Shown one piece after another: positions 12,941-40,686 of a stretch of 64,000 nt of DNA. Under the pieces are notes generated by a model. That model worked only from the letters and a program-made list of their open reading frames with translations, made no database searches and was not told the origin of the DNA. How positions within the stretch are numbered: the stretch's first letter is position 1; every line of letters begins with the position of its first letter. Origin of the DNA: Rickettsiales bacterium (GTDB lineage Bacteria > Pseudomonadota > Alphaproteobacteria > Rickettsiales > JABIRX01). Location: contig JAWUXM010000016.1 in NCBI GenBank assembly GCA_034111325.1, positions 29,214 to 93,213 of the forward strand, given 5' to 3'. Both the position numbers and the translations under genes were made by a program.

Positions 12941-13085
12941 GGTCATCCTGAACTTGTTTCAGGATCTGCATAATTAGCAAGATAGTAAAGGCAAGGACTT
13001 TTCACTCAAGCCATATCCTAATATAAAAACTAAACTGCTGCACTATTGGTTACTCAGCAGATCCTGAAACAAGTTCAGGATGACC
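12941..13085. repeat. Family-C MITE-like element copy C1 (about 145 bp with about 29-bp terminal inverted repeats)
   Basis: ggtcatcctgaacttgtttcaggatctgc ... gcagatcctgaaacaagttcaggatgacc. It lies between cobT and cobS. A second full copy is at 33492-33639. Confidence 0.85.
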
Positions 13086-23205: not shown

Positions 23206-23254
23206 CTATTAATTGACTGTGATTTGATTTAATGGAAAACATTTGAGAAGCATT

Positions 23255-24007
23255 ATGAGCAAAACAATAGTTATTGGCAATTGGAAAATGAACGGCGACC
23301 TCGCCTTTTGTAAAAACCTCGCTCAACAAATAACAACGCATGCCGAAATGGACGATGATACAAATGTAGTTCTATGTCCACCAACGCCCTTCCTATCCGC
23401 AGTTAATGATGTTATAACAACCAGCCCTCTTTCACTTGGCGCGCAGGATTGCAGTGAATCTGATAAAGGTGCACATACTGGTGATGTCTCTGCTTCAATG
23501 CTCAAATCCATCGGCTGCAATCATGTCATAGTTGGCCATTCTGAAAGACGAACTAATCATGGCGAGACTAATCAACTAGTTAAAGCCAAAGCATATAATG
23601 CTCAACAAAATGACTTAGTAACGATTATCTGCGTTGGTGAAAATCTTGCTGAATATCAACAAGGCAAAACTCATACAGTAATAAAACAACAATTAATCGA
23701 ATCATTATCAGAAGATACTGACTCAGAAAACACAATTATTGCTTACGAACCAGTTTGGGCAATTGGCACTGGGAAAATCCCTAGCATACAAGAAATAAGC
23801 GATATTGCAGAATTAATGAGCGAAACTGTAAAAACACTTGGCAATAAAACAAATAATGCTAACATGCGCTTCCTTTATGGTGGCTCCGTCAATAAGAACA
23901 ACGCACAGGAACTCGCCTCAATAGAAAAAATTAACGGTTTTTTAGTAGGTTCAGCAAGTCTGAACGCTGAAGAATTTTGCAATATTATAAGATTAACTCA
24001 AAGGTAA
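23255..24007 (+). CDS. tpiA: Triosephosphate isomerase
   Basis: IGNWKMNG, VGHSERR and AYEPVWAIGTG. ATG at 23255; the track start at 23243 is TTG. Confidence 0.95.
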   Translation: MSKTIVIGNWKMNGDLAFCKNLAQQITTHAEMDDDTNVVLCPPTPFLSAVNDVITTSPLSLGAQDCSESDKGAHTGDVSASMLKSIGCNHVIVGHSERRTNHGETNQLVKAKAYNAQQNDLVTIICVGENLAEYQQGKTHTVIKQQLIESLSEDTDSENTIIAYEPVWAIGTGKIPSIQEISDIAELMSETVKTLGNKTNNANMRFLYGGSVNKNNAQELASIEKINGFLVGSASLNAEEFCNIIRLTQR

Positions 24008-24018
24008 AGAAATAAGTT

Positions 24019-24333
24019 ATGGAAAATCTACAAAATCTATTATTAATAGTTCACATCATTACCGCAGTTTTACTGATAGTCTTAGTGCTCTTGCAACCAA
24101 GCTCAAGTGACGGTGGCTTTGTTTCATCAATGAATAATTCGCAAGCCCTTGTATCAGGGCGCTCTGCCGCCAATTTCTTAACTAAACTAACTGGCTTCCT
24201 TGCAGCATTATTTATGCTAAACAGCTTAGCTTTAGCCACACTTGCACATAGGCAAGTTGATAAAGATTCACAAATTGATAAATTTATCAAACAAAAAACC
24301 CAAGAAACACCTGCTGCACCATTAGCAGAATAA
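24019..24333 (+). CDS. secG: Preprotein translocase subunit SecG
   Basis: 104 aa with two TM segments. IITAVLLIVLVLLQPSSSDG is a SecG-type motif. The position between tpiA and pyrG is commonly conserved. Confidence 0.85.
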   Translation: MENLQNLLLIVHIITAVLLIVLVLLQPSSSDGGFVSSMNNSQALVSGRSAANFLTKLTGFLAALFMLNSLALATLAHRQVDKDSQIDKFIKQKTQETPAAPLAE

Positions 24334-24350
24334 TAGTGCAATAACATAAT

Positions 24351-25979
24351 ATGAAAAACACGAAATTTATATTCATAACTGGCGGCGTTGTATCATCCCT
24401 TGGCAAAGGCATTACTGGTGCTAGCCTTGCCTCCATATTACAAGCTCATGGCTATAAAGTCCGCATCAGAAAATTAGACCCTTATCTAAATGTTGACCCA
24501 GGTACAATGAGCCCTTTCCAACATGGTGAAGTTTACGTCACTGATGATGGCGCTGAGACTGACCTTGACCTTGGTCATTATGAAAGATTCACTGACATTA
24601 ATACTAAAAAATCAGACAATGTCACATCTGGTCAAATTTACTCAAAACTACTTAGTAAAGAGCGCAAAGGAGACTATCTCGGCGGAACAGTCCAAGTCAT
24701 TCCACATGTTACTGATCTAATAAAAGAATTCATCCTCAGCAACATTACTGATGAAGATTTTATAATTTATGAAATCGGCGGCACAGTTGGTGACATTGAA
24801 GGCTTACCATTCTTTGAAGCAATTCGTCAAATTGGCTATAAATTCGGTCGTGAAAAATCCCTCTTCATTCACTTAACTTTAGTGCCTTATATCAAAGCTG
24901 CTAAAGAGATAAAAACCAAACCAACACAACATTCCGTCAAAGAATTGCGCTCAATCGGTATCCAACCTGACATCCTAATCTGCCGCAGTGAAGTTCCAGT
25001 TCCCGCAGCTGAACGTAAAAAAATTGCACTATTTTGCAATGTTGATGAAAAGAATGTAATTCAAGCACCTGATGTTGACACAATCTACCGCATACCGCTA
25101 GTTCTTCACCAACAAAAGCTTGATCGGCAAATTCTTGAACATTTTAATCTAGCGATTGAGTGCGAGCCTAATCTTGAAAAATGGCAAAATATTGTTAGCC
25201 AAATTAACAAAAATAAAAAGACGGTTAATATTGCCATAGTAGGAAAATATACTGGTTTAAAAGAGGCGTACAAATCTTTGATCGAATCCTTAGAGCATGC
25301 GGCAATTAACCTTGATGTAAAAGTAGAAATCATCTGGATTGATGCAAGAACACTCAATAAAAAAACTACAAAAGCAAGCCTTGTTAGTGCAGACGGAGTC
25401 TTGGTACCAGGCGGCTTTGGCACAGAAGGCATAAAAGGTAAAATCGCTGCAATTACTTACGCACGTGAAAACAACATTCCCTTCTTCGGAATTTGCCTTG
25501 GTATGCAAATGGCAGTTATAGAATTTGCTGAAAATGTTGCTAAAATTAACTCACCATATTCAAGTGAGTTCGTCAAAAAAAGAAACGGCAACCAATTAAT
25601 CGGTTTGATGACCGAATGGTTCAAAAGTGGTAAAAAACAACAACGCAAACATAATGGTGATTTAGGCGGGACAATGCGCTTAGGAGCCTATCCTTGTAAA
25701 ATAATTGCCAAAACTTTAGCCAGTAAAATCTATGGCATGAGCAAGATCGACGAACGTCACAGGCATCGTTACGAGTTTAATATTAATTATAAAAAACAGC
25801 TGGAAAAGGCTGGCATGGTTTTCTCCGGAATGTCCCCTGATAATAATTTAGCTGAAATTATCGAGCTGCCTACAAATGATTTCTTCATCGCTGTGCAATT
25901 TCACCCTGAACTTAAATCACGACCTTTCTCACCGCACCCTTTATTTACAAATTTTGTCAAAGCAAGTAGTAAAATATAA
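24351..25979 (+). CDS. pyrG: CTP synthase
   Basis: FIFITGGVVSSLGKG, GATase nucleophile GICLGMQ, and C-terminal QFHPE; 542 aa. Confidence 0.96.
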   Translation: MKNTKFIFITGGVVSSLGKGITGASLASILQAHGYKVRIRKLDPYLNVDPGTMSPFQHGEVYVTDDGAETDLDLGHYERFTDINTKKSDNVTSGQIYSKLLSKERKGDYLGGTVQVIPHVTDLIKEFILSNITDEDFIIYEIGGTVGDIEGLPFFEAIRQIGYKFGREKSLFIHLTLVPYIKAAKEIKTKPTQHSVKELRSIGIQPDILICRSEVPVPAAERKKIALFCNVDEKNVIQAPDVDTIYRIPLVLHQQKLDRQILEHFNLAIECEPNLEKWQNIVSQINKNKKTVNIAIVGKYTGLKEAYKSLIESLEHAAINLDVKVEIIWIDARTLNKKTTKASLVSADGVLVPGGFGTEGIKGKIAAITYARENNIPFFGICLGMQMAVIEFAENVAKINSPYSSEFVKKRNGNQLIGLMTEWFKSGKKQQRKHNGDLGGTMRLGAYPCKIIAKTLASKIYGMSKIDERHRHRYEFNINYKKQLEKAGMVFSGMSPDNNLAEIIELPTNDFFIAVQFHPELKSRPFSPHPLFTNFVKASSKI

Positions 25980-26802
25980 AGACCTAATCGGTGTTGGGCT
26001 TCGCCAACCACACTACAAGGACTTCATTGAAGGCACGCCAGATATTGGCTGGCTCGAGGTACATAGTGAGAATTTCTTTGCTGAAGGTGGTGCATCTATT
26101 GAATTCTTACATAAAATTGCCAATAAATACCCATTAAGTATGCATGGCGTTGGCTTATCCCTTGGCTCTAGCGACGGCTTGGATAAACACCACCTTACAA
26201 AACTTAAAAAATTAATTAGTGAAGTTAAACCCTTCTTAGTTTCTGAACATGTTTCATGGTCAGGCTTTGGCGGACAATTCTTAAATGATCTACTTCCCTT
26301 GCCTTATAATCAAGAATCACTGGAGATTATTTGTGACAACATAAATTATCTACAAGATTTTCTTGGTCGCGAGATTCTCATTGAAAACCCCTCTTCCTAT
26401 ATGGCTTTCGACGAATCTAGCATGAGTGAGTGGGAGTTTATGAGACGAGCTCAAGAAAAAACTAATTGTGGATTATTACTTGATTTAAACAATATTTTTG
26501 TCTCCGCTTATAATCATAACTTCTCAAGCATAGATTATATTGACCACATGCCAATAAAAGCTGTAAAAGAAATTCACCTTGCTGGCCCCACTAAAAAACA
26601 ATTAAAAAATAAAGAAATTTTTATTGATAGCCATAGTACAAAAGTCATGGCTGAAGTCTGGCAATTATACGAATATGCAACAGGTATTTTTGGCGCAGTA
26701 CCTACGTTGATTGAATGGGACAATAACATTCCAGAGCTTAGTATTTTGCTAGGGGAAGCAGAAAAAGCACGTAAAATTATCAGAACCCATGACGGATCTT
26801 AA
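25954..26802 (+). CDS. DUF692-family multinuclear non-heme iron oxidase (MNIO; MbnB/BufB/HvfB-like)
   Basis: IGVGLRQPHYKDF...WLEVHSENFF...HGVGLSLGS...LVSEHVSW...IENPSSY...LLDLNNIFVS...EIHLAG matches the TIM-barrel DUF692 pattern. I prefer TTG at 25954, which leaves 11 aa before IGVGLR. The track ATG at 25876 would overlap pyrG by 104 nt. Confidence 0.85.
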   Translation: MSKQVVKYKDLIGVGLRQPHYKDFIEGTPDIGWLEVHSENFFAEGGASIEFLHKIANKYPLSMHGVGLSLGSSDGLDKHHLTKLKKLISEVKPFLVSEHVSWSGFGGQFLNDLLPLPYNQESLEIICDNINYLQDFLGREILIENPSSYMAFDESSMSEWEFMRRAQEKTNCGLLLDLNNIFVSAYNHNFSSIDYIDHMPIKAVKEIHLAGPTKKQLKNKEIFIDSHSTKVMAEVWQLYEYATGIFGAVPTLIEWDNNIPELSILLGEAEKARKIIRTHDGS

Positions 26803-27502
26803 AAACATACAAAAAGACTTTATTGAGAAGATTTACGACTCATCAATTGATGATGAGTTAATTGATATATATCGCAATAATATTTTCCACAACCTAACTT
26901 CGAGCCTTCAAAATATTTACAAAACCACAGAGAAAATTGTCGGTGAAAAATATTTCAAACATTTAGCACTCGAATATATAAAGCAACATCCCTCAGAAAG
27001 TGGTAATCTAGAAGATTATGGTGAGTACTTTCCAACCCACCTTAAAGAAATCGATATTATAAAAAAACAATTGCCATACCTACCTGATATAGCAAAAATT
27101 GACTGGCTCTATCATTTTTCATATCAACAAAAAGATACTAAACCACTTGCGGCTGAACAATTAACAAGCCTCAAAGAGGAAGATTATTTTAAGTTAAAAT
27201 TTAAATTACATCCTGCCATATTTTTCTACAAATCAGCATATCCTATCTGGCAAATTTGGCAGCTTAATAATTGCACTGATAATTCGCTAAGAGTGAATTT
27301 CAATGATGGTAGTGAAAATATTATCATTATGCGGCAAGGAATAAAAACTCTTATAGAACCTATTGACCAAGCAGAATATGTGTTTCTACAAGAAATTCAA
27401 AACGGCAAAACACTTTATGCAATTTTTAGATTACTTGACAAAGAAAACCTCAACTCTAACATCGGCGATATGCTCAAAAAGTTTTCACAACAATTAATTT
27501 AA
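26789..27502 (+). CDS. DUF2063-family protein (MNIO partner, BufC/HvfC-like)
   Basis: 237 aa with N-terminus LKNIQKDFIEKIYD...IYRNNIFHNLTSSL, typical of DUF2063. It overlaps the DUF692 gene by 14 nt. Confidence 0.75.
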   Translation: MTDLKNIQKDFIEKIYDSSIDDELIDIYRNNIFHNLTSSLQNIYKTTEKIVGEKYFKHLALEYIKQHPSESGNLEDYGEYFPTHLKEIDIIKKQLPYLPDIAKIDWLYHFSYQQKDTKPLAAEQLTSLKEEDYFKLKFKLHPAIFFYKSAYPIWQIWQLNNCTDNSLRVNFNDGSENIIIMRQGIKTLIEPIDQAEYVFLQEIQNGKTLYAIFRLLDKENLNSNIGDMLKKFSQQLI

Positions 27503-27514
27503 TAGGTTATCAAC

Positions 27515-27973
27515 ATGACAGCGAAATCATACAATAAAAAGTCTGGTTACAGCAAATGCATAATTAATGCAGGAGAAAAATTCATTGCTATTTTAAACTA
27601 CATCTCCCCACTATTTAACCTCGCTGTTAGGCTCTGGATTGCCTCTATCTTCTGGAAATCTGGCATAACAAAAATAGCCAATTGGGATCAAACATTATTC
27701 CTGTTCGAATATGAATATGCAGTGCCATTACTGCCAGTGGCTTTAGCAGCAATGATGTCCACAGCAGCAGAGCTTGCTTGCCCTGTCTTCCTCGTACTTG
27801 GCCTAGCTACAAGGTTCGCTGCTTTACCTTTATTCATTATGACAGTAATCATCCAATATACCGTAATTGCCCATGACCAACATTATTACTGGATGACAGC
27901 TTTACTATTCCTCATCTTCTATGGTGCTGAAAAATTATCGCTTGATCATATCTTAAGCAGAAAGAGACGCTAG
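27515..27973 (+). CDS. DoxX-family membrane protein
   Basis: 152 aa with 4 TM segments. RLWIASIFWKSGITKI is a DoxX-type motif. It starts 12 nt after the DUF2063 gene. Confidence 0.75.
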   Translation: MTAKSYNKKSGYSKCIINAGEKFIAILNYISPLFNLAVRLWIASIFWKSGITKIANWDQTLFLFEYEYAVPLLPVALAAMMSTAAELACPVFLVLGLATRFAALPLFIMTVIIQYTVIAHDQHYYWMTALLFLIFYGAEKLSLDHILSRKRR

Positions 27974-28037
27974 TCTAGAGCAAAACCCAATTTTTACATT
28001 TGCAGAATATTGCTGGGCATCTACATATTAAGGCAAT

Positions 28038-28082
28038 ATTTTGCATCGCAAAAGAGTCATCCTGAATTTTTTCAGGATCTGC
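28038..28082. repeat. Family-C solo terminal repeat (C3)
   Basis: ttttgcatcgcaaaagagtcatcctgaattttttcaggatctgc. Confidence 0.7.
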
Positions 28083-28165
28083 ATATTAGTAAGAAAGTTA
28101 GTTCAGACAAATTAAAAATTTTTGATTTGCGACACTCCCACATCCTACAAACCCTTACCCCATAC

Positions 28166-28189
28166 CTCTCCCTTATGATTAAGGGAGAG
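28166..28189. repeat. Family-D short hairpin (ctctccctta/taagggagag)
   Basis: Perfect 10-bp stem between the convergent doxX-like and parC genes. Related hairpins are at 19170, 34823, 54096 and 61583. Confidence 0.7.
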
Positions 28190-28234
28190 CTTTAACGGAA
28201 TAGTGTAAAAAGGGCGCAAAAAGATTATTTTGCT

Positions 28235-30442
28235 CTAAAATTTATTACTTCTTGGGAAATCAGAAGGCGCAGCAAGGCCGCGTGTTGCTCTGGTACCAAA
28301 CCATTTCTTCAGCATCGATTGATCCCAGAATTTACGTCCAGCTTTGAGGCCATCTTCTAATTTAAAACTTGTAAAATCTAGCAATTTACAACCGGCCTGT
28401 TTCTGCAATATAACACCTTTACCTTTTTTCATCACTGGGATTTGTGCCAAATCAAAAATCAGCAAACGCCTTGCGCCACTCAGTAATGCTATTTTATCAT
28501 CACCTTCTCTAATATGTTTGAGTCCAATTGCCTTATCATCCTTATTGAGCGCCAATATTTGTTTACCATTTTTTGTTTGGGCAATAATGTCGTCAGACTC
28601 AACAATAAATCCTTTCCCTAAAAGTGAAGCCATTAATAATTTCCGACCTTTCTCATAAATGAATAGATCAGCAATATTAGCACCTTGCTCAATATCCACG
28701 ATCAAATTCAATGGCTCGCCATCAGTTTTCCCGCGGGAAATCTTATGTGCATCTAATGTATAGAAACGTCCATTATCAGCAAATATAACTAATTTATCCG
28801 TGCTTTGCGCTTCGATAACAAATTTTTCCTTATCTCCTTCCTTATATTTAACTTTTCCTAAATCATACTTGTGACCCTTCACAGCACGTATCCAACCAAG
28901 TTTTGAACAAATAATTGTTAAAGGCTCTTTCGGAATAAAATCCATTTCCGAAACTTCCTTAATTACAAATTCATTATCTACTGTAGTTTGACGTTGATAA
29001 ATCCCCCCAGCCTTCTGCCCAAAGCGTCTTTTGACTTCTTTAAACTCAGCCGTCAAAACCTCTTTACGTCTTCCTTCTGAATCTAAAATTTCCTGCAACT
29101 CTTTACGTTCAGCTAATAACGCCTCTTGCTCTTCTTTGATTTTAATTTCCTCTAATTTACGTAAAGAACGCAAACGCATATTTAGAATCGCCTCAGCCTG
29201 AACATCACTAAGCTTCCATTTAGCTATCATAATCTTCTTCGGCTCATCCTCTTCACGGATAATCCTAATAACTTCATCAAGGTTTAAATAGGCAATTAAC
29301 AAACCACCAAGAATCTCTAAGCGTTCATCAATTTTACCAATGCGGAATGTACTTTTTCTAACTAAAACATTAAAGCGATGTGCAATAAAAGCGTTTAGCA
29401 CTTCACGCAAGTTCATCACATGTGGTACAGAATTTTTATCCAAAACATTAAGATTAAGACTATAACGTGTCTCCAATTCAGTTAATTTGAATAATTGCTC
29501 CATCAATGATTCTGCATCAGTTGCGCGGCTTCTAGGCTCAATTACTACACGAATTTCCTCTGCCGATTCATCCATGATATTAGCAAAATTCTGCACTTTT
29601 TTGGTACGCAACAAATCCGCCATTTTTTCTAACAACCGCGATTTCTGTACTTGGTAAGGAATTTCGGTAATAATTATTTGATATGCGCCCTGCTTAAGAT
29701 CTTCCTTATGCCATTTAGCACGAATTCTAAAAGAGCCTCGCCCCGCCGTATAATTTGCAATAATATTAGCTTTTGACTCAATAAGCACACCACCTGTTGG
29801 GAAATCTGGCGCTTGCACAAAATCCACTAATTTGGCTATACTAGCCTCAGGGTGTTTGAGCAAATGCAACAAAGCATCGGCTAACTCGCCAGCATTGTGC
29901 GGCGGGATAGAAGTCGCCATCCCCACGGCAATACCCTCGCTTCCATTAGCTAATAAATTAGGAAAAGCCGCAGGCAAAAGAGCAGGCTCACTATCGCCGT
30001 CGTCATAAGTCGGGCGAAAATCAACTGTATCAAACTCGATATCTTGCAATAAAGCCATCGCAACATCAGTCAAGCGAGCCTCTGTATAACGCATTGCAGC
30101 AGCATTATCGCCATCAACCGAACCAAAATTCCCCTGCCCTTCAACTAATGGGTAGCGTGCTGAGAATGATTGCGCCAAGCGTACCAACGCGTCATAAACC
30201 GCTATATCACCATGCGGGTGATATTTACCAATTACGTCACCAACTACTCTTGCACATTTCTTAAAACCTGAATTAGGCTCCAAGTGCAAACGTAACATCG
30301 CATATAAAATTCTCCTATGTACAGGCTTCAAACCATCACGCACATCAGGTAGTGACCGTGACATAATGGTAGAGAGTGCATAAGAAAAATAACGCTCTCC
30401 TAACGCTTTACTAAAATCTATATTGTGAATTTGCTCAGTCAT
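28235..30442 (-). CDS. parC: DNA topoisomerase IV subunit A
   Basis: [12 protein letters not shown], with the catalytic Tyr context [10 protein letters not shown]. The 735-aa size fits ParC better than GyrA. Confidence 0.88.
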
Positions 30443-33419: not shown

Positions 33420-33491
33420 TATAATATACAATATTACATTATGAATTTCCTCTAGTAAGAAAAATTATTCTAGTCAAGCAACTACCCACAG

Positions 33492-33639
33492 AGTCATCCT
33501 GAATTTATTTCAGGATCTGCTGAGTGAGCCAATAATATAGTAGCTTAATTTTTATAGTAAGACATGGTATGAGTATCAATTATTTACTTCCATTTTCGTG
33601 GCTAAATTGTGCAGATCCTGAAATAAATTCAGGATGACT
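33492..33639. repeat. Family-C MITE-like element copy C2 (about 148 bp)
   Basis: agtcatcctgaatttatttcaggatctgc ... gcagatcctgaaataaattcaggatgact. The flanking ttttgcggtgcaaaa extension is shared with the copies at 28038 and 54066. Confidence 0.85.
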
Positions 33640-33729
33640 ACTTTTGCGGTGCAAAACCTCGCTTCAATATGCAAATAATGGCAATAGTTTAAAGACACCC
33701 TACGCTTTTCATATGCTAAATGTTAAATC

Positions 33730-36386: not shown

Positions 36387-38114
36387 ATGCAAACTCTCAA
36401 ATACTCATTCATCTTTCTGCTCCTAACAATCAGTTCAAGTTTTGCGCTGGAAGGAAATTGGCAAGCAGCACCGCATTTAAAGTCACGTTTATTGATTACC
36501 GAAAGTAATGATACCCACATCTCTGGCGGGATAGAATTTACTATTGAAGATGGCTGGAAGATATACAATGACAAACCAGGCAAAAATGGCTTACCCACCG
36601 AGATCGATAATTTACGAAGCCAAAATATTACCAATCTCCAATTTACCTTCCCTAAAGCAAAGAAATTTGATGAAGGTCACAACATCATAACCTATGGCTA
36701 TAAAAAACATGTAATTTTACCTTTTACGGCTGAGCTAGTTGATAACCAAGCAAACTCACATGTAAATTTGCTAGCAAATTTGGCGATTTGCAAAGATATA
36801 TGCATCCCTGTTTCACAGAAATTTAGCACGGATGTTAAGCAAAGTTATCATAGCTCTGTATCGGAACGCTTAATAAAACCATTCCTGCCTAAGACAAATT
36901 ATCAAGTTATTTTACTAATGTTATCTTTTGCCTTTATTGGCGGTTTGATTTTAAATATCATGCCTTGCGTTTTGCCAGTTTTATCAATCAAATTACTCAA
37001 CATTATAAAGAAAGGAGGCGCTGATAAGAAAACAATTCGTCTAAGCTTCTTAGCCACTGCCAGCGGGATAATATCATCCTTTATGATCCTTGCGGCCTCT
37101 ATCGCAGCGCTTAAGCATTTCGGCAAAAATTTTGGCTGGGGGATTCATTTCCAAGAACCAATATTTTTGATTTTTCTAATTTTGATATTAGTAATTTTTG
37201 CCAGTAATTTATGGGGCTTTTTCCATATAAATTTACCCCATCAATTAAGTAATATTGGGAGCAAAAAACATAAGAACCCTTATGCAAATCACTTCTTTTC
37301 TGGCGTACTCGCAACCTTACTTTCAACGCCCTGCTCCGCACCTTTCTTAGGTTCTGCAACTGCCTTTGCCTTAGGCGGCAGCATTACGGATATTTTCTAT
37401 ATATTCTTCTTTATGGCGTTAGGCTTAGCCTCACCATATTTTGTCCTAATGGCTTTTCCGAATTTAATTAGCAAATTCCCTAAACCCGGCCAATGGATGA
37501 TCAATGTCAAAAAATTCATGGGGTTTTTATTATTACTCACTGCCCTATGGCTTATCTGGGTTGTCTCACATCAGTTAGGCTTCGCCTCTAGCCTTGCCTT
37601 AGTAATTATCGCCACCTTAATTTTTAAATTATTTGCTTGGGCTAATAAAATTAGATTCCTCAAAAAATACTCATTGATTCTCTTTCTAATTCTGAGTGTT
37701 GCTGCTTTCTATACACCACTTAAAATCGCCGAGATGCGGGTTGAAAAGTTAAAACTGTCCCAAGATCTATGGCAAAAATTTGAACCACAAAAAATCCAAC
37801 CGTTGGTGCAAACAGGAAAAACAGTGTTTGTTAATGTTACGGCCGATTGGTGCATTACTTGCAAAATAAATAAATTTTTTATTCTTAACAAAACCTCTGT
37901 TATCAATAGCTTGCGACAAGAAAATGTCATTGCGATGGAAGCTGACTATACTAATAAAAATGAAGAAATTTATCAATTCCTTATTAGTAATAATCGCTAC
38001 GGTATACCATTCTATATTATCTACGGGCCCAATGCGCCACAAGGTATAAAACTCCCTGAGGCTATTACTCCAGCTATGGTTATTAAAGCAATTAATGAGG
38101 CAAGCGGCAGATGA
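36387..38114 (+). CDS. dsbD: DsbD/ScsB-family thiol:disulfide interchange protein
   Basis: Signal peptide, an N-terminal periplasmic domain, and a TM core with MPCVLPVLS and TPCSAPFLG. The C-terminal thioredoxin fold carries WCITC. Confidence 0.85.
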   Translation: MQTLKYSFIFLLLTISSSFALEGNWQAAPHLKSRLLITESNDTHISGGIEFTIEDGWKIYNDKPGKNGLPTEIDNLRSQNITNLQFTFPKAKKFDEGHNIITYGYKKHVILPFTAELVDNQANSHVNLLANLAICKDICIPVSQKFSTDVKQSYHSSVSERLIKPFLPKTNYQVILLMLSFAFIGGLILNIMPCVLPVLSIKLLNIIKKGGADKKTIRLSFLATASGIISSFMILAASIAALKHFGKNFGWGIHFQEPIFLIFLILILVIFASNLWGFFHINLPHQLSNIGSKKHKNPYANHFFSGVLATLLSTPCSAPFLGSATAFALGGSITDIFYIFFFMALGLASPYFVLMAFPNLISKFPKPGQWMINVKKFMGFLLLLTALWLIWVVSHQLGFASSLALVIIATLIFKLFAWANKIRFLKKYSLILFLILSVAAFYTPLKIAEMRVEKLKLSQDLWQKFEPQKIQPLVQTGKTVFVNVTADWCITCKINKFFILNKTSVINSLRQENVIAMEADYTNKNEEIYQFLISNNRYGIPFYIIYGPNAPQGIKLPEAITPAMVIKAINEASGR

Positions 38115-38596
38115 TCTATAAAATAAAACCCATTGAAAATTCCATCCTCCTTGGCGCTTTATCTATACTCTTCCTCTCTAGCGCTTATATCATGCAATTT
38201 GGCTTTGATATGCAGCCCTGCATCTTATGTATATATCAGCGCATCCCCTATTTATTACTGATATTATTTTCTATTCTCGCCATGGCTTTGCGTCATAACG
38301 ATCGAATTGTAACTTTTTTCTTATCACTCTCTACCCTTATACTTTTTATCGGCAGCGCTATCGCTTTTTACCATGCTGGGGTTGAATATGGCTTCTTTGA
38401 GGGCTTAAGCAGCTGCGCAACTAAATCACCAATGGTTGATAATATTGAAAAATTAAAGAACTTTCTGCTCCAACAAAAAGCTATGGATTGTAGCAAACCA
38501 CAATTTGTTTTTCTCCTTTCCCTAGCAGGGTGGAACTTTATTATATCTTTATCGCTTGGTATTTTTACTTTAGTCACTATATTAAGAAGTAAATAA
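38111..38596 (+). CDS. dsbB: Disulfide bond formation protein B family
   Basis: 161 aa with 4 TM segments. CILCIYQRIPY is the first Cys pair; a second periplasmic Cys pair follows. There is a 4-nt ATGA overlap with dsbD. Confidence 0.8.
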   Translation: MIYKIKPIENSILLGALSILFLSSAYIMQFGFDMQPCILCIYQRIPYLLLILFSILAMALRHNDRIVTFFLSLSTLILFIGSAIAFYHAGVEYGFFEGLSSCATKSPMVDNIEKLKNFLLQQKAMDCSKPQFVFLLSLAGWNFIISLSLGIFTLVTILRSK

Positions 38597-40386: not shown

Positions 40387-40686
40387 TTACTTCTTCGCAT
40401 CTACACATTTTCTTGCTCTTGTATCCCAACATTTGCTTGTACCACAATCACATCCATAAGTAATAGCATAGCTACACCTCCTCGGGCCTATTGAATTTCC
40501 AATAGGGCAATTATTTGCACAGCTATCAGAAAAAAGCCTCCATGTCCCGCCAATGTCATGACAGATTTTTTCAGGCTTTTCTTTGGGCTTACGATTAATG
40601 TTAATATAGGCGGAAGAAGAAACTGCAACAACAAGCAATAACGAAGCAATAATAAATGTTCTCTTTTTAAACATAGAATTCCTCAA
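40387..40686 (-). CDS. Small secreted cysteine-rich protein, unknown function
   Basis: Signal peptide FKKRTFIIASLLLVVAVSSSAY. The mature part is about 70 aa with 8 Cys (CHD..C..NC..C..CDC..CWD..C). Confidence 0.6.
   Translation of the reverse strand: MRNSMFKKRTFIIASLLLVVAVSSSAYININRKPKEKPEKICHDIGGTWRLFSDSCANNCPIGNSIGPRRCSYAITYGCDCGTSKCWDTRARKCVDAKK

Follow-up and report, generated by a model that had tools for sequence, protein, structure and literature searches.

An intact BufB-BufC-DoxX maturation cassette behind the tpiA-secG-pyrG operon of a Rickettsiales bacterium, without a linked precursor gene

We examined a 64,000-nucleotide stretch of DNA (hereafter the window) from the Rickettsiales bacterium assembly GCA_034111325.1 (contig JAWUXM010000016.1, positions 29,214 to 93,213 of the forward strand), and found in it a cassette coding for the maturation and accessory proteins of a bufferin-type system for RiPPs (peptides made by ribosomes and modified after translation). 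The cassette comprises bufB, encoding a maturase of the MNIO (DUF692) family, bufC, encoding its DUF2063-containing partner, and bufD, encoding a membrane protein of the DoxX family. All three genes are intact and could be identified, and no precursor gene is linked to them in the 78.7 kb that we searched of the 102-kb contig. Pairs of bufB and bufC that likewise have no adjacent precursor are present in related lineages, where they are under purifying selection. We lean towards reading the cassette as a functional bufBCD module that acts in trans on an unlinked precursor of the DUF2282/BufA1 type.

The cassette lies on the forward strand behind a housekeeping operon that begins with tpiA (triose-phosphate isomerase, 23243..24007; Pfam TIM), and continues with secG (24019..24333; Pfam SecG) and a full-length pyrG coding for a CTP synthase of 542 residues (24351..25979; Pfam CTP_synth_N and GATase). 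There is no intergenic space between pyrG and bufB (25954..26802; 282 residues): the last 8 codons of pyrG overlap the start of bufB in a different frame. The bufB and bufC (26789..27502) genes in turn overlap by 14 nucleotides, which suggests translational coupling, and bufD (27515..27973) follows after a gap of 12 nucleotides. Thus, the ORF listing and our reading of the sequence bear out every coordinate and spacing of the original prediction, which had described a tightly packed MNIO-DUF2063-DoxX trio behind tpiA-secG-pyrG, with an MNIO frame that opens inside the 3' end of pyrG and leaves no room for a precursor gene. Two bufB starts are possible, both of them leading to the same end at 26802, namely an ATG at 25876 (104-nucleotide overlap with pyrG) or a TTG at 25954 (26-nucleotide overlap), and the database annotations differ accordingly, with NCBI giving the 282-residue form and JGI a 308-residue form. 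The TTG is the likelier start because it places 12 residues before the GxGLR motif, as against 38 from the ATG, and thereby fits the 119 homologues that we aligned (median 13, maximum 36).

Sequence profile searches clearly identified the first gene product as a bufferin maturase: BufB scores 379 bits against the NCBIfam model NF050167 (MNIO_BufB; cutoff 310) and 342 bits against Pfam PF05114, and matches the structure PDB 3bww with an e-value of 4e-39. It is hence an MNIO and not a xylose-isomerase-like sugar enzyme, a possibility that had been raised as a potential objection. By comparison, it reaches only 228 bits with the HvfB model (cutoff 360) and 59 bits with the MbnB model TIGR04159 (cutoff 325), and falls well under the cutoffs of the ApyH and ChrH models. 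BufC matches PF09836 with 72 bits, whereas its 31 bits against the HvfC equivalog model do not reach the cutoff of 142; it is predicted to combine an N-terminal DUF2063 helical domain with a C-terminal RRE-like alpha/beta domain, the architecture of a PME-type-1 partner. Its AlphaFold2 model is confidently folded (pLDDT 87.4, pTM 0.82), and a Foldseek search with this model recovered TglI (8hci_A, 8hi7_A) and NGO1945 (3dee) with probability 1.0 and no other significant structural neighbours, indicating that the modelled protein has the fold of the MNIO partners. The DoxX protein matches PF07681 with 61 bits (cutoff 23.6) and scores 58 bits against the NCBIfam HvfX model, under its cutoff of 80; it is 47% identical to its counterpart in a classical buf1 operon (L068, see below). 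In the JGI annotation the protein encoded at 26789-27502 is labeled as a "predicted ribosome-associated RNA-binding protein Tma20", which looks like a misannotation in view of the PF09836 match and the shared fold with MNIO partner proteins.

These family models support the earlier view that the trio comprises the modifying and accessory genes of a bufferin-type RiPP operon from which the precursor is missing. They also narrow it, in that the cassette had been termed Bufferin/Hvf-type, of which the Buf assignment stands and the Hvf assignment does not. We rejected membership of the Hvf/oxazolin subfamily, which acts on Lys-Cys (EGKCG) peptides, on the grounds that the HvfB model stays under its cutoff, the arginine-arginine and phenylalanine (RR/F) signature is absent, and no EGKCG peptide is encoded in the searched 78.7 kb. 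An assignment to the methanobactin enzymes MbnB and MbnC was likewise discarded, the MbnB model being under its cutoff and the partner being a DUF2063 protein rather than MbnC.

Examination of the conservation pattern revealed that BufB agrees with the consensus at every one of the 71 alignment positions whose conservation in the 119 homologues reaches 95% or more. The residues expected to bind iron, which on the basis of the alignment and of general knowledge of the family, rather than a structure of BufB itself, we take to be H37, H64, E98/H99, E144, D177, N180, H208, D225, H227 and E254, are all present, and D256 aligns with the catalytic base D249 of FonB. Accordingly, the loss of iron ligands that would have marked a dead remnant was not observed. 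BufC is more divergent, with its best homologues being 29-37% identical, and retains the invariant motifs of its family. No frameshifts or stops interrupt the three consecutive genes. In GC content, GC3 and codon usage the cassette falls inside the spread of its neighboring genes, and these measures are continuous across the pyrG/bufB junction; since its composition is fully ameliorated to that of the host, the cassette appears to be old in this genome. Its identity to other lineages (50-57% for BufB and 32-37% for BufC) is no lower than that of those lineages among themselves, and there is therefore no sign of accelerated decay. Together, these features suggest neither a pseudogene nor a recent import.

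To place the missing precursor in context we collected from GTDB representative genomes 20 conventional loci whose BufB relatives show 34-53% identity. A small cysteine-containing protein with a signal peptide is encoded directly upstream of bufB in every one of these 20 loci; 17 of the proteins are DUF2282-like and the remainder are Cys-rich repeat peptides (GKCG-type in two cases). With the addition of three further loci (L068-L070) an adjacent precursor is seen in 23 of 23 conventional relatives, being directly upstream in the 20 GTDB loci. Two loci were noted as exceptions to the strict bufABC order: one (L070 4262-6567) is arranged as bufA1-doxX-bufB-bufC with the DoxX gene between the precursor and the MNIO, and the other (L018) has two MNIO genes with RG/DN and RR/DF signatures, respectively, together with adjoining genes for an EGKCG-repeat peptide and a DUF2282 protein. 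A myxococcal (Myxococcales) locus codes for a GKCG-type precursor (L016 9610-9852) upstream of a 550-residue MNIO fusion protein; this precursor reaches 31.5 bits (cutoff 30.5) with TIGR04081, the NCBIfam model of the SbtA thio(seleno)oxazole precursor.

We then searched for a precursor in all six frames of the window and in two flanking stretches (L031 and L032), which together make up the above 78.7 kb and are bordered by about 22 kb at the left end of the contig and about 1.3 kb at its right end. A Buf1 hidden Markov model (HMM) built from 15 precursors of the conventional loci detects all 17 DUF2282 loci among the 20 with e-values of 1e-30 to 1e-38; it recovered no precursor in the window (best e-value about 2) or in the two flanks. 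Queries of the EGKCG type also found no match in these 78.7 kb. Likewise, no Buf1, Buf2 or EGKCG precursor adjoins the cassette and, with pyrG abutting and overlapping bufB, no precursor-like open reading frame is situated upstream of it, as had been anticipated. The spacer between doxX and parC has no precursor coding potential, its 61-residue reading frame (28010-28195) possessing no cysteine and no family match. Heuristic scans of the window and flanks for small secreted Cys-rich reading frames yielded only one credible gene, that for a 95-residue protein at 40387-40674 considered below; the other products, which we dismissed, were spurious antisense reading frames, an SNase-like protein, a TlpA-like thioredoxin and DsbB.

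The comparison of gene-neighborhoods in relatives, which had been proposed as a check, separated two situations. In contrast to the conventional loci, the closest homologues of BufB other than its identical NCBI copy (55-58% identity) are encoded without a precursor. They come from low-GC (35-37%) alphaproteobacterial metagenome-assembled genomes (MAGs) labeled as "Rickettsiales bacterium" or "Alphaproteobacteria bacterium" (loci L022-L030, e.g. GCA_027621865.1 JAQCAQ010000005.1, GCA_002787635.1 PCXK01000007.1 and JGI Ga0210050_1000001); the GC content of the window is 38%. These loci contain bufB-bufC pairs with neither an upstream precursor nor a DoxX gene, in five different neighborhoods that include tRNA-Gly/DsbD, a restriction-modification island, UbiA and guaA, and in no case do they lie behind pyrG. 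The Buf1 profile recovered nothing within 6 kb of these pairs, and no conserved third gene was found downstream of bufC across this clade. Comparison of two of the loci (L022 and L026) gave ratios of nonsynonymous to synonymous substitution rates (dN/dS) of 0.11 for bufB and 0.14 for bufC at a dS of about 0.3, i.e. both genes are under purifying selection.

A hint as to the origin of this state comes from a conserved neighbor. In the conventional locus L068 a divergent UbiA gene is followed by bufA1-bufA1-bufB-bufC-doxX, and in the precursor-less locus L028 a homologous UbiA gene (50% identity) is followed directly by bufB-bufC. As L068 keeps two bufA1 genes beside the same UbiA neighbor, it looks as if an ancestral conventional operon lost its precursor genes or had them moved elsewhere, leaving the orphan state. 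In a neighbor-joining tree the window BufB sits on a long branch, being nearest by distance to the precursor-less clade and placed beside conventional sequences; as the tree does not robustly join it to that clade, uncoupling from the precursor may have happened more than once. We also observed a DsbD-like gene directly upstream of bufB in one orphan locus (L022 3452-5554), separated from it by the tRNA-Gly gene, and an ScsB/DsbD-like gene (DsbD_N, DsbD_TM and Thioredoxin_7 domains) followed by a DsbB gene in the window at 36387-38596, 8 kb downstream of the cassette. This proximity may reflect a link to thiol or copper stress, or it may be coincidental.

The enzymes themselves offer an indication of the substrate class. 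Previous work on FonB showed that R15/R16 and F250, the latter immediately following the D249 base, track the class of the precursor (PMC13097082). Among the loci that we retrieved, DUF2282-associated enzymes have an arginine or lysine followed by a residue other than arginine, and mostly an asparagine after the catalytic aspartate, whereas the GKCG/EGKCG-associated enzymes have Arg-Arg, one of them (the second, RR/DF-type MNIO of L018) with Asp-Phe. The window BufB displays R17-Q18 and D256-N257, identical to a DUF2282-associated enzyme of Roseateles. Further, the nearest homologues of its BufC are found in classical bufA1-bufB-bufC operons. Given these specificity residues and the affinities of BufC, we infer that the expected partner is an ordinary BufA1-type (DUF2282) protein.

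The single credible small secreted Cys-rich protein in the searched region (40387-40674, or 99 residues if read as 40387-40686; reverse strand) had been put forward as a candidate substrate. It has a signal peptide and 8 cysteines, and its gene is located between alaS and a gene for a PgeF/Cu-oxidase_4 protein. It showed no match to any Pfam or NCBIfam model, including those for BufA1, BufA2 and HvfA, even at e-values up to 10, while the BufA2, HvfA and SbtA models of that library do pick up control precursors. A word-based homologue search with this protein recovered only itself; an exhaustive profile-free search, on the other hand, produced 447 matches at e-values of 1e-3 or lower, revealing a widespread family undescribed in Pfam and NCBIfam. 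The unit of this family is a secreted 8-Cys domain of approximately 55 residues that occurs either alone, in proteins of about 90 residues, or repeated 2-4 times in tandem within larger ones, and is typified by the signature C-x3-GG-x-W-x2-F-x-N-x-C-x-D-x-C ... C-x-Q ... GCDCG-x2-KCW[ND]G-x2-C. Seven of its cysteines are invariant and one nearly so, a pattern suggestive of structural disulfides and a disulfide-knotted fold; one member has a weak match to the TIL domain. A scan of metagenomes with a 9-sequence subset of our 37-sequence alignment found an MNIO gene near a family member in none of 35 loci (16 of which span 5 kb or more), with the MNIO profile detecting every control. We accordingly set this protein aside: it matches no precursor model, belongs to an unrelated widespread family that does not travel with MNIO genes in the 35 loci, and is not likely to be the substrate of BufBC.

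As to expression, the overlap of bufB with pyrG makes co-transcription of the cassette with tpiA-secG-pyrG a reasonable reading, and constitutive read-through from this operon, as originally proposed, is plausible. A promoter region would find no space between pyrG and bufB. Metal-stress regulation by SigF and NrsF is frequent, albeit non-universal, in Buf1 clusters, and no trace of it was seen here: the SigF-type promoter motif GTAACC-N16-CGAA (PMC3511200) does not occur anywhere in the window, and neither a sigma factor nor an NrsF gene is among the genes annotated around the cassette. Scans with promoter and terminator consensus sequences gave matches at chance level, and Rfam detected no element near the cassette. 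A Shine-Dalgarno motif precedes 17 of 44 genes and is lacking before bufB; as such motifs are rare here, its absence says nothing.

Downstream, the 27974..28234 spacer separates doxX from the convergent parC gene (28235-30442, reverse strand) and is probably where transcription of the operon ends. The original description of this region as "only repeat sequence" was an overstatement, in that its 260 nucleotides contain no tandem repeats, but it does harbor hairpins (e.g. 28166-28189 and 28059-28078) and copies of two dispersed short palindromic repeats. These belong to two families of about 20-47 nucleotides, resembling repetitive extragenic palindromic (REP) elements, that are scattered over the intergenic regions of the window: one has copies at 28039-28083, 33490-33520, 33610-33656, 12942-12972 and 13057-13084, and the second at 28206-28230, 61543-61564, 54332-54355 and 58085-58103. 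One REP-like family is built around the hairpin ATCCTGAAAAAATTCAGGAT. Elsewhere, the window codes for a 1414-residue reading frame with no Pfam match (48220-52464, reverse strand) and a 576-residue protein whose only match is the low-complexity family Trypan_PARP (58525-60255, forward strand); both look like large repetitive proteins. Other genes on the contig include those for CcmE/F, DUF1674, Sdh5, GapR, COQ7 and cytochrome bc1, a set that suggests an uncultured alphaproteobacterium of low GC as the host. The window maps in reverse orientation onto positions 72861-8862 of the 102,074-bp JGI contig, to which the 102,119-bp NCBI contig is nearly identical.

Taken together, we favor the interpretation that the cassette is a Buf1-type (captophorin) maturation module, bufB-bufC-bufD, which has been separated from its precursor gene. 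In Caulobacter, BufB and BufC are necessary and sufficient for installing thiooxazoles on BufA1, the product buffers copper, and DoxX (BufD) is dispensable for the modification (PMC11626156). By analogy with that system, BufB would be the multi-iron oxidase and BufC its RRE-type partner, and the two would convert the cysteines of a Sec-exported small protein to 5-thiooxazoles that chelate copper, as Cu(I)/Cu(II), in the periplasm, with DoxX serving as an accessory membrane protein. The module, whose bufB start codon is located inside the 3' end of pyrG, would probably be co-transcribed with tpiA-secG-pyrG, and the precursor would be encoded at an unlinked locus beyond the searched 78.7 kb. We infer the existence and class of that precursor, the co-transcription and the chemistry. 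As surveys already report stand-alone precursor genes, the cassette would represent the complementary, enzyme half of a known split situation. The original prediction had offered three possibilities, a substrate encoded elsewhere, a different kind of substrate, or a remnant; of these, the first is favored and the last disfavored.

Several points weigh against such a trans-acting module. No precursor was actually found in the searched part of the contig, and a survey of the MNIO landscape reports the bufABC gene order to be strictly conserved (PMC12452194). BufC is slightly short relative to its homologues, with about 13 residues absent from an N-terminal loop in addition to a short C-terminal tail. 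The cassette has no close relative (the next best BufB is 58% identical), and selection was measured only on other pairs. Moreover, MNIO-PME1 clusters have been reported to be depleted in Rickettsiales (PMC13097082), and the lineage may thus be losing the system. Some of these points would equally fit a recently orphaned relic, which would have lost its precursor gene when a rearrangement brought bufB against pyrG, leaving intact but substrate-less genes heading to decay. Under this scenario the pyrG/bufB junction removed any upstream region, and the depletion in Rickettsiales-like lineages, the somewhat shortened BufC, and the lack of both a dedicated SigF/NrsF regulator and a SigF-type promoter would all be in keeping with it. 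However, BufB has no substitution at the 71 highly conserved positions, the three genes are free of frameshifts and stops, the host-ameliorated composition speaks for a long residence in the genome, the divergence is not accelerated, and precursor-less bufBC pairs of related MAGs are maintained by purifying selection. We hence regard a relic as unlikely. An artefactual origin, with the junction formed by chimeric assembly of the metagenome contig, might be suspected from the source of the assembly and the unusual junction. We find it scarcely credible, as the same proteins are encoded on both the 102,074-bp JGI contig (sample 3300041951, Ga0455689_062714) and the 102,119-bp NCBI contig, the GC, GC3 and codon usage run continuously across the junction, and both flanks (tpiA-secG-pyrG and parC-recO) consist of ordinary core genes of one genome.

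Alternatively, BufBC might modify some other Cys-containing secreted protein, either of a new precursor class or the above 95-residue, 8-Cys protein. The conservation of a whole clade of bufBC pairs without an adjacent precursor would agree with this, as would the fact that many minor MNIO precursor types are still unidentified (PMC12452194). Nevertheless, the specificity residues and the affinities of BufC indicate the ordinary DUF2282 class, and the 8-Cys protein, its signal peptide notwithstanding, fails to match precursor models that do recover the positive controls, while the cysteine pattern of its family points to structural disulfides and none of its 35 loci has an MNIO; a non-canonical substrate is therefore quite unlikely. 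A precursor-independent role, in which the trio was recruited to a peptide-free housekeeping or redox function, would explain its placement in a core operon, with the physical fusion to tpiA-secG-pyrG and the redox roles of DoxX proteins in other systems (PMC11252979) in its favor. We deem it highly improbable given that the characterized MNIOs in the cited studies modify ribosomal peptides, the peptide-recognition RRE domain of PME1 partners is retained in BufC, and BufB passes the equivalog threshold for bufferin maturases. A broader conjecture, improbable in our estimation, is that in several low-GC, probably host-associated alphaproteobacterial lineages, including the one whose cassette is hard-wired into the tpiA-secG-pyrG operon, BufBC has been uncoupled from any canonical precursor and is kept by selection for modifying a new, unlinked substrate class (another secreted Cys protein or several), with constitutive production in place of control by metal stress.

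Bufferins and captophorins are mined from genomes on the premise of a precursor immediately upstream of the MNIO. The present case indicates that the enzyme half can persist alone, and the related clade shows that purifying selection maintains this enzyme-only state. Should the precursor be unlinked, the cassette would be a natural case of a trans-acting BufBC, neighborhood-based surveys would underestimate precursor counts, and the maturation machinery would be expressed with core metabolism, with regulation perhaps being carried by the precursor. If instead the genome holds no canonical precursor, these enzymes would point to a new substrate class.

Comparison with known systems places the cassette closest to the Buf1 bufferins, namely buf1ABCD of Caulobacter vibrioides (CCNA_03363-03366) and gig of Cupriavidus metallidurans (PMC11626156), with which it has in common the bufB-bufC-bufD proteins, their order, the bufB/bufC overlap, a BufB above the equivalog threshold and the DUF2282-type specificity residues. 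In contrast to them, it has no upstream bufA1, no sigF/nrsF and no SigF promoter, and its bufB starts inside pyrG. The hvf operon of Haemophilus influenzae (HvfX-HvfA-HvfB-HvfC; oxazolin) and fonABC of Fontimonas (fontiphorin) share the enzyme superfamily, partner type and DoxX (PMC11252979, PMC13097082), and presumably, by analogy, a chemistry acting on cysteine; they are set apart by the HvfB, HvfC and HvfX scores of the cassette (228/360, 31/142 and 58/80), its lack of the RR and Phe residues and of an EGKCG peptide, and a different gene order. Stand-alone bufferin precursor genes reported in the landscape survey of MNIOs are similarly non-adjacent to their enzymes, but that survey has orphan precursors, not orphan enzyme cassettes or attachment to a housekeeping operon (PMC12452194). 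It also mentions small MNIO clusters that follow genes of housekeeping type and whose precursor could not be named. In the literature we found no description of a precursor-less BufB-BufC-DoxX cassette or of one appended to pyrG. The precursor-less bufBC pairs resemble the cassette in the missing adjacent precursor, the low-GC alphaproteobacterial hosts and the 55-58% BufB identity, and differ from it in having no DoxX, in not lying behind pyrG, and in not being robustly united with it in the neighbor-joining tree. Finally, in split RiPP systems of the prochlorosin type a single lanthipeptide synthetase, ProcM, acts on precursors encoded at many unlinked sites of the genome; its enzyme family and chemistry are unrelated, and it provides a precedent solely for the logic of enzymes that act in trans, which is the logic that we favor for this cassette.

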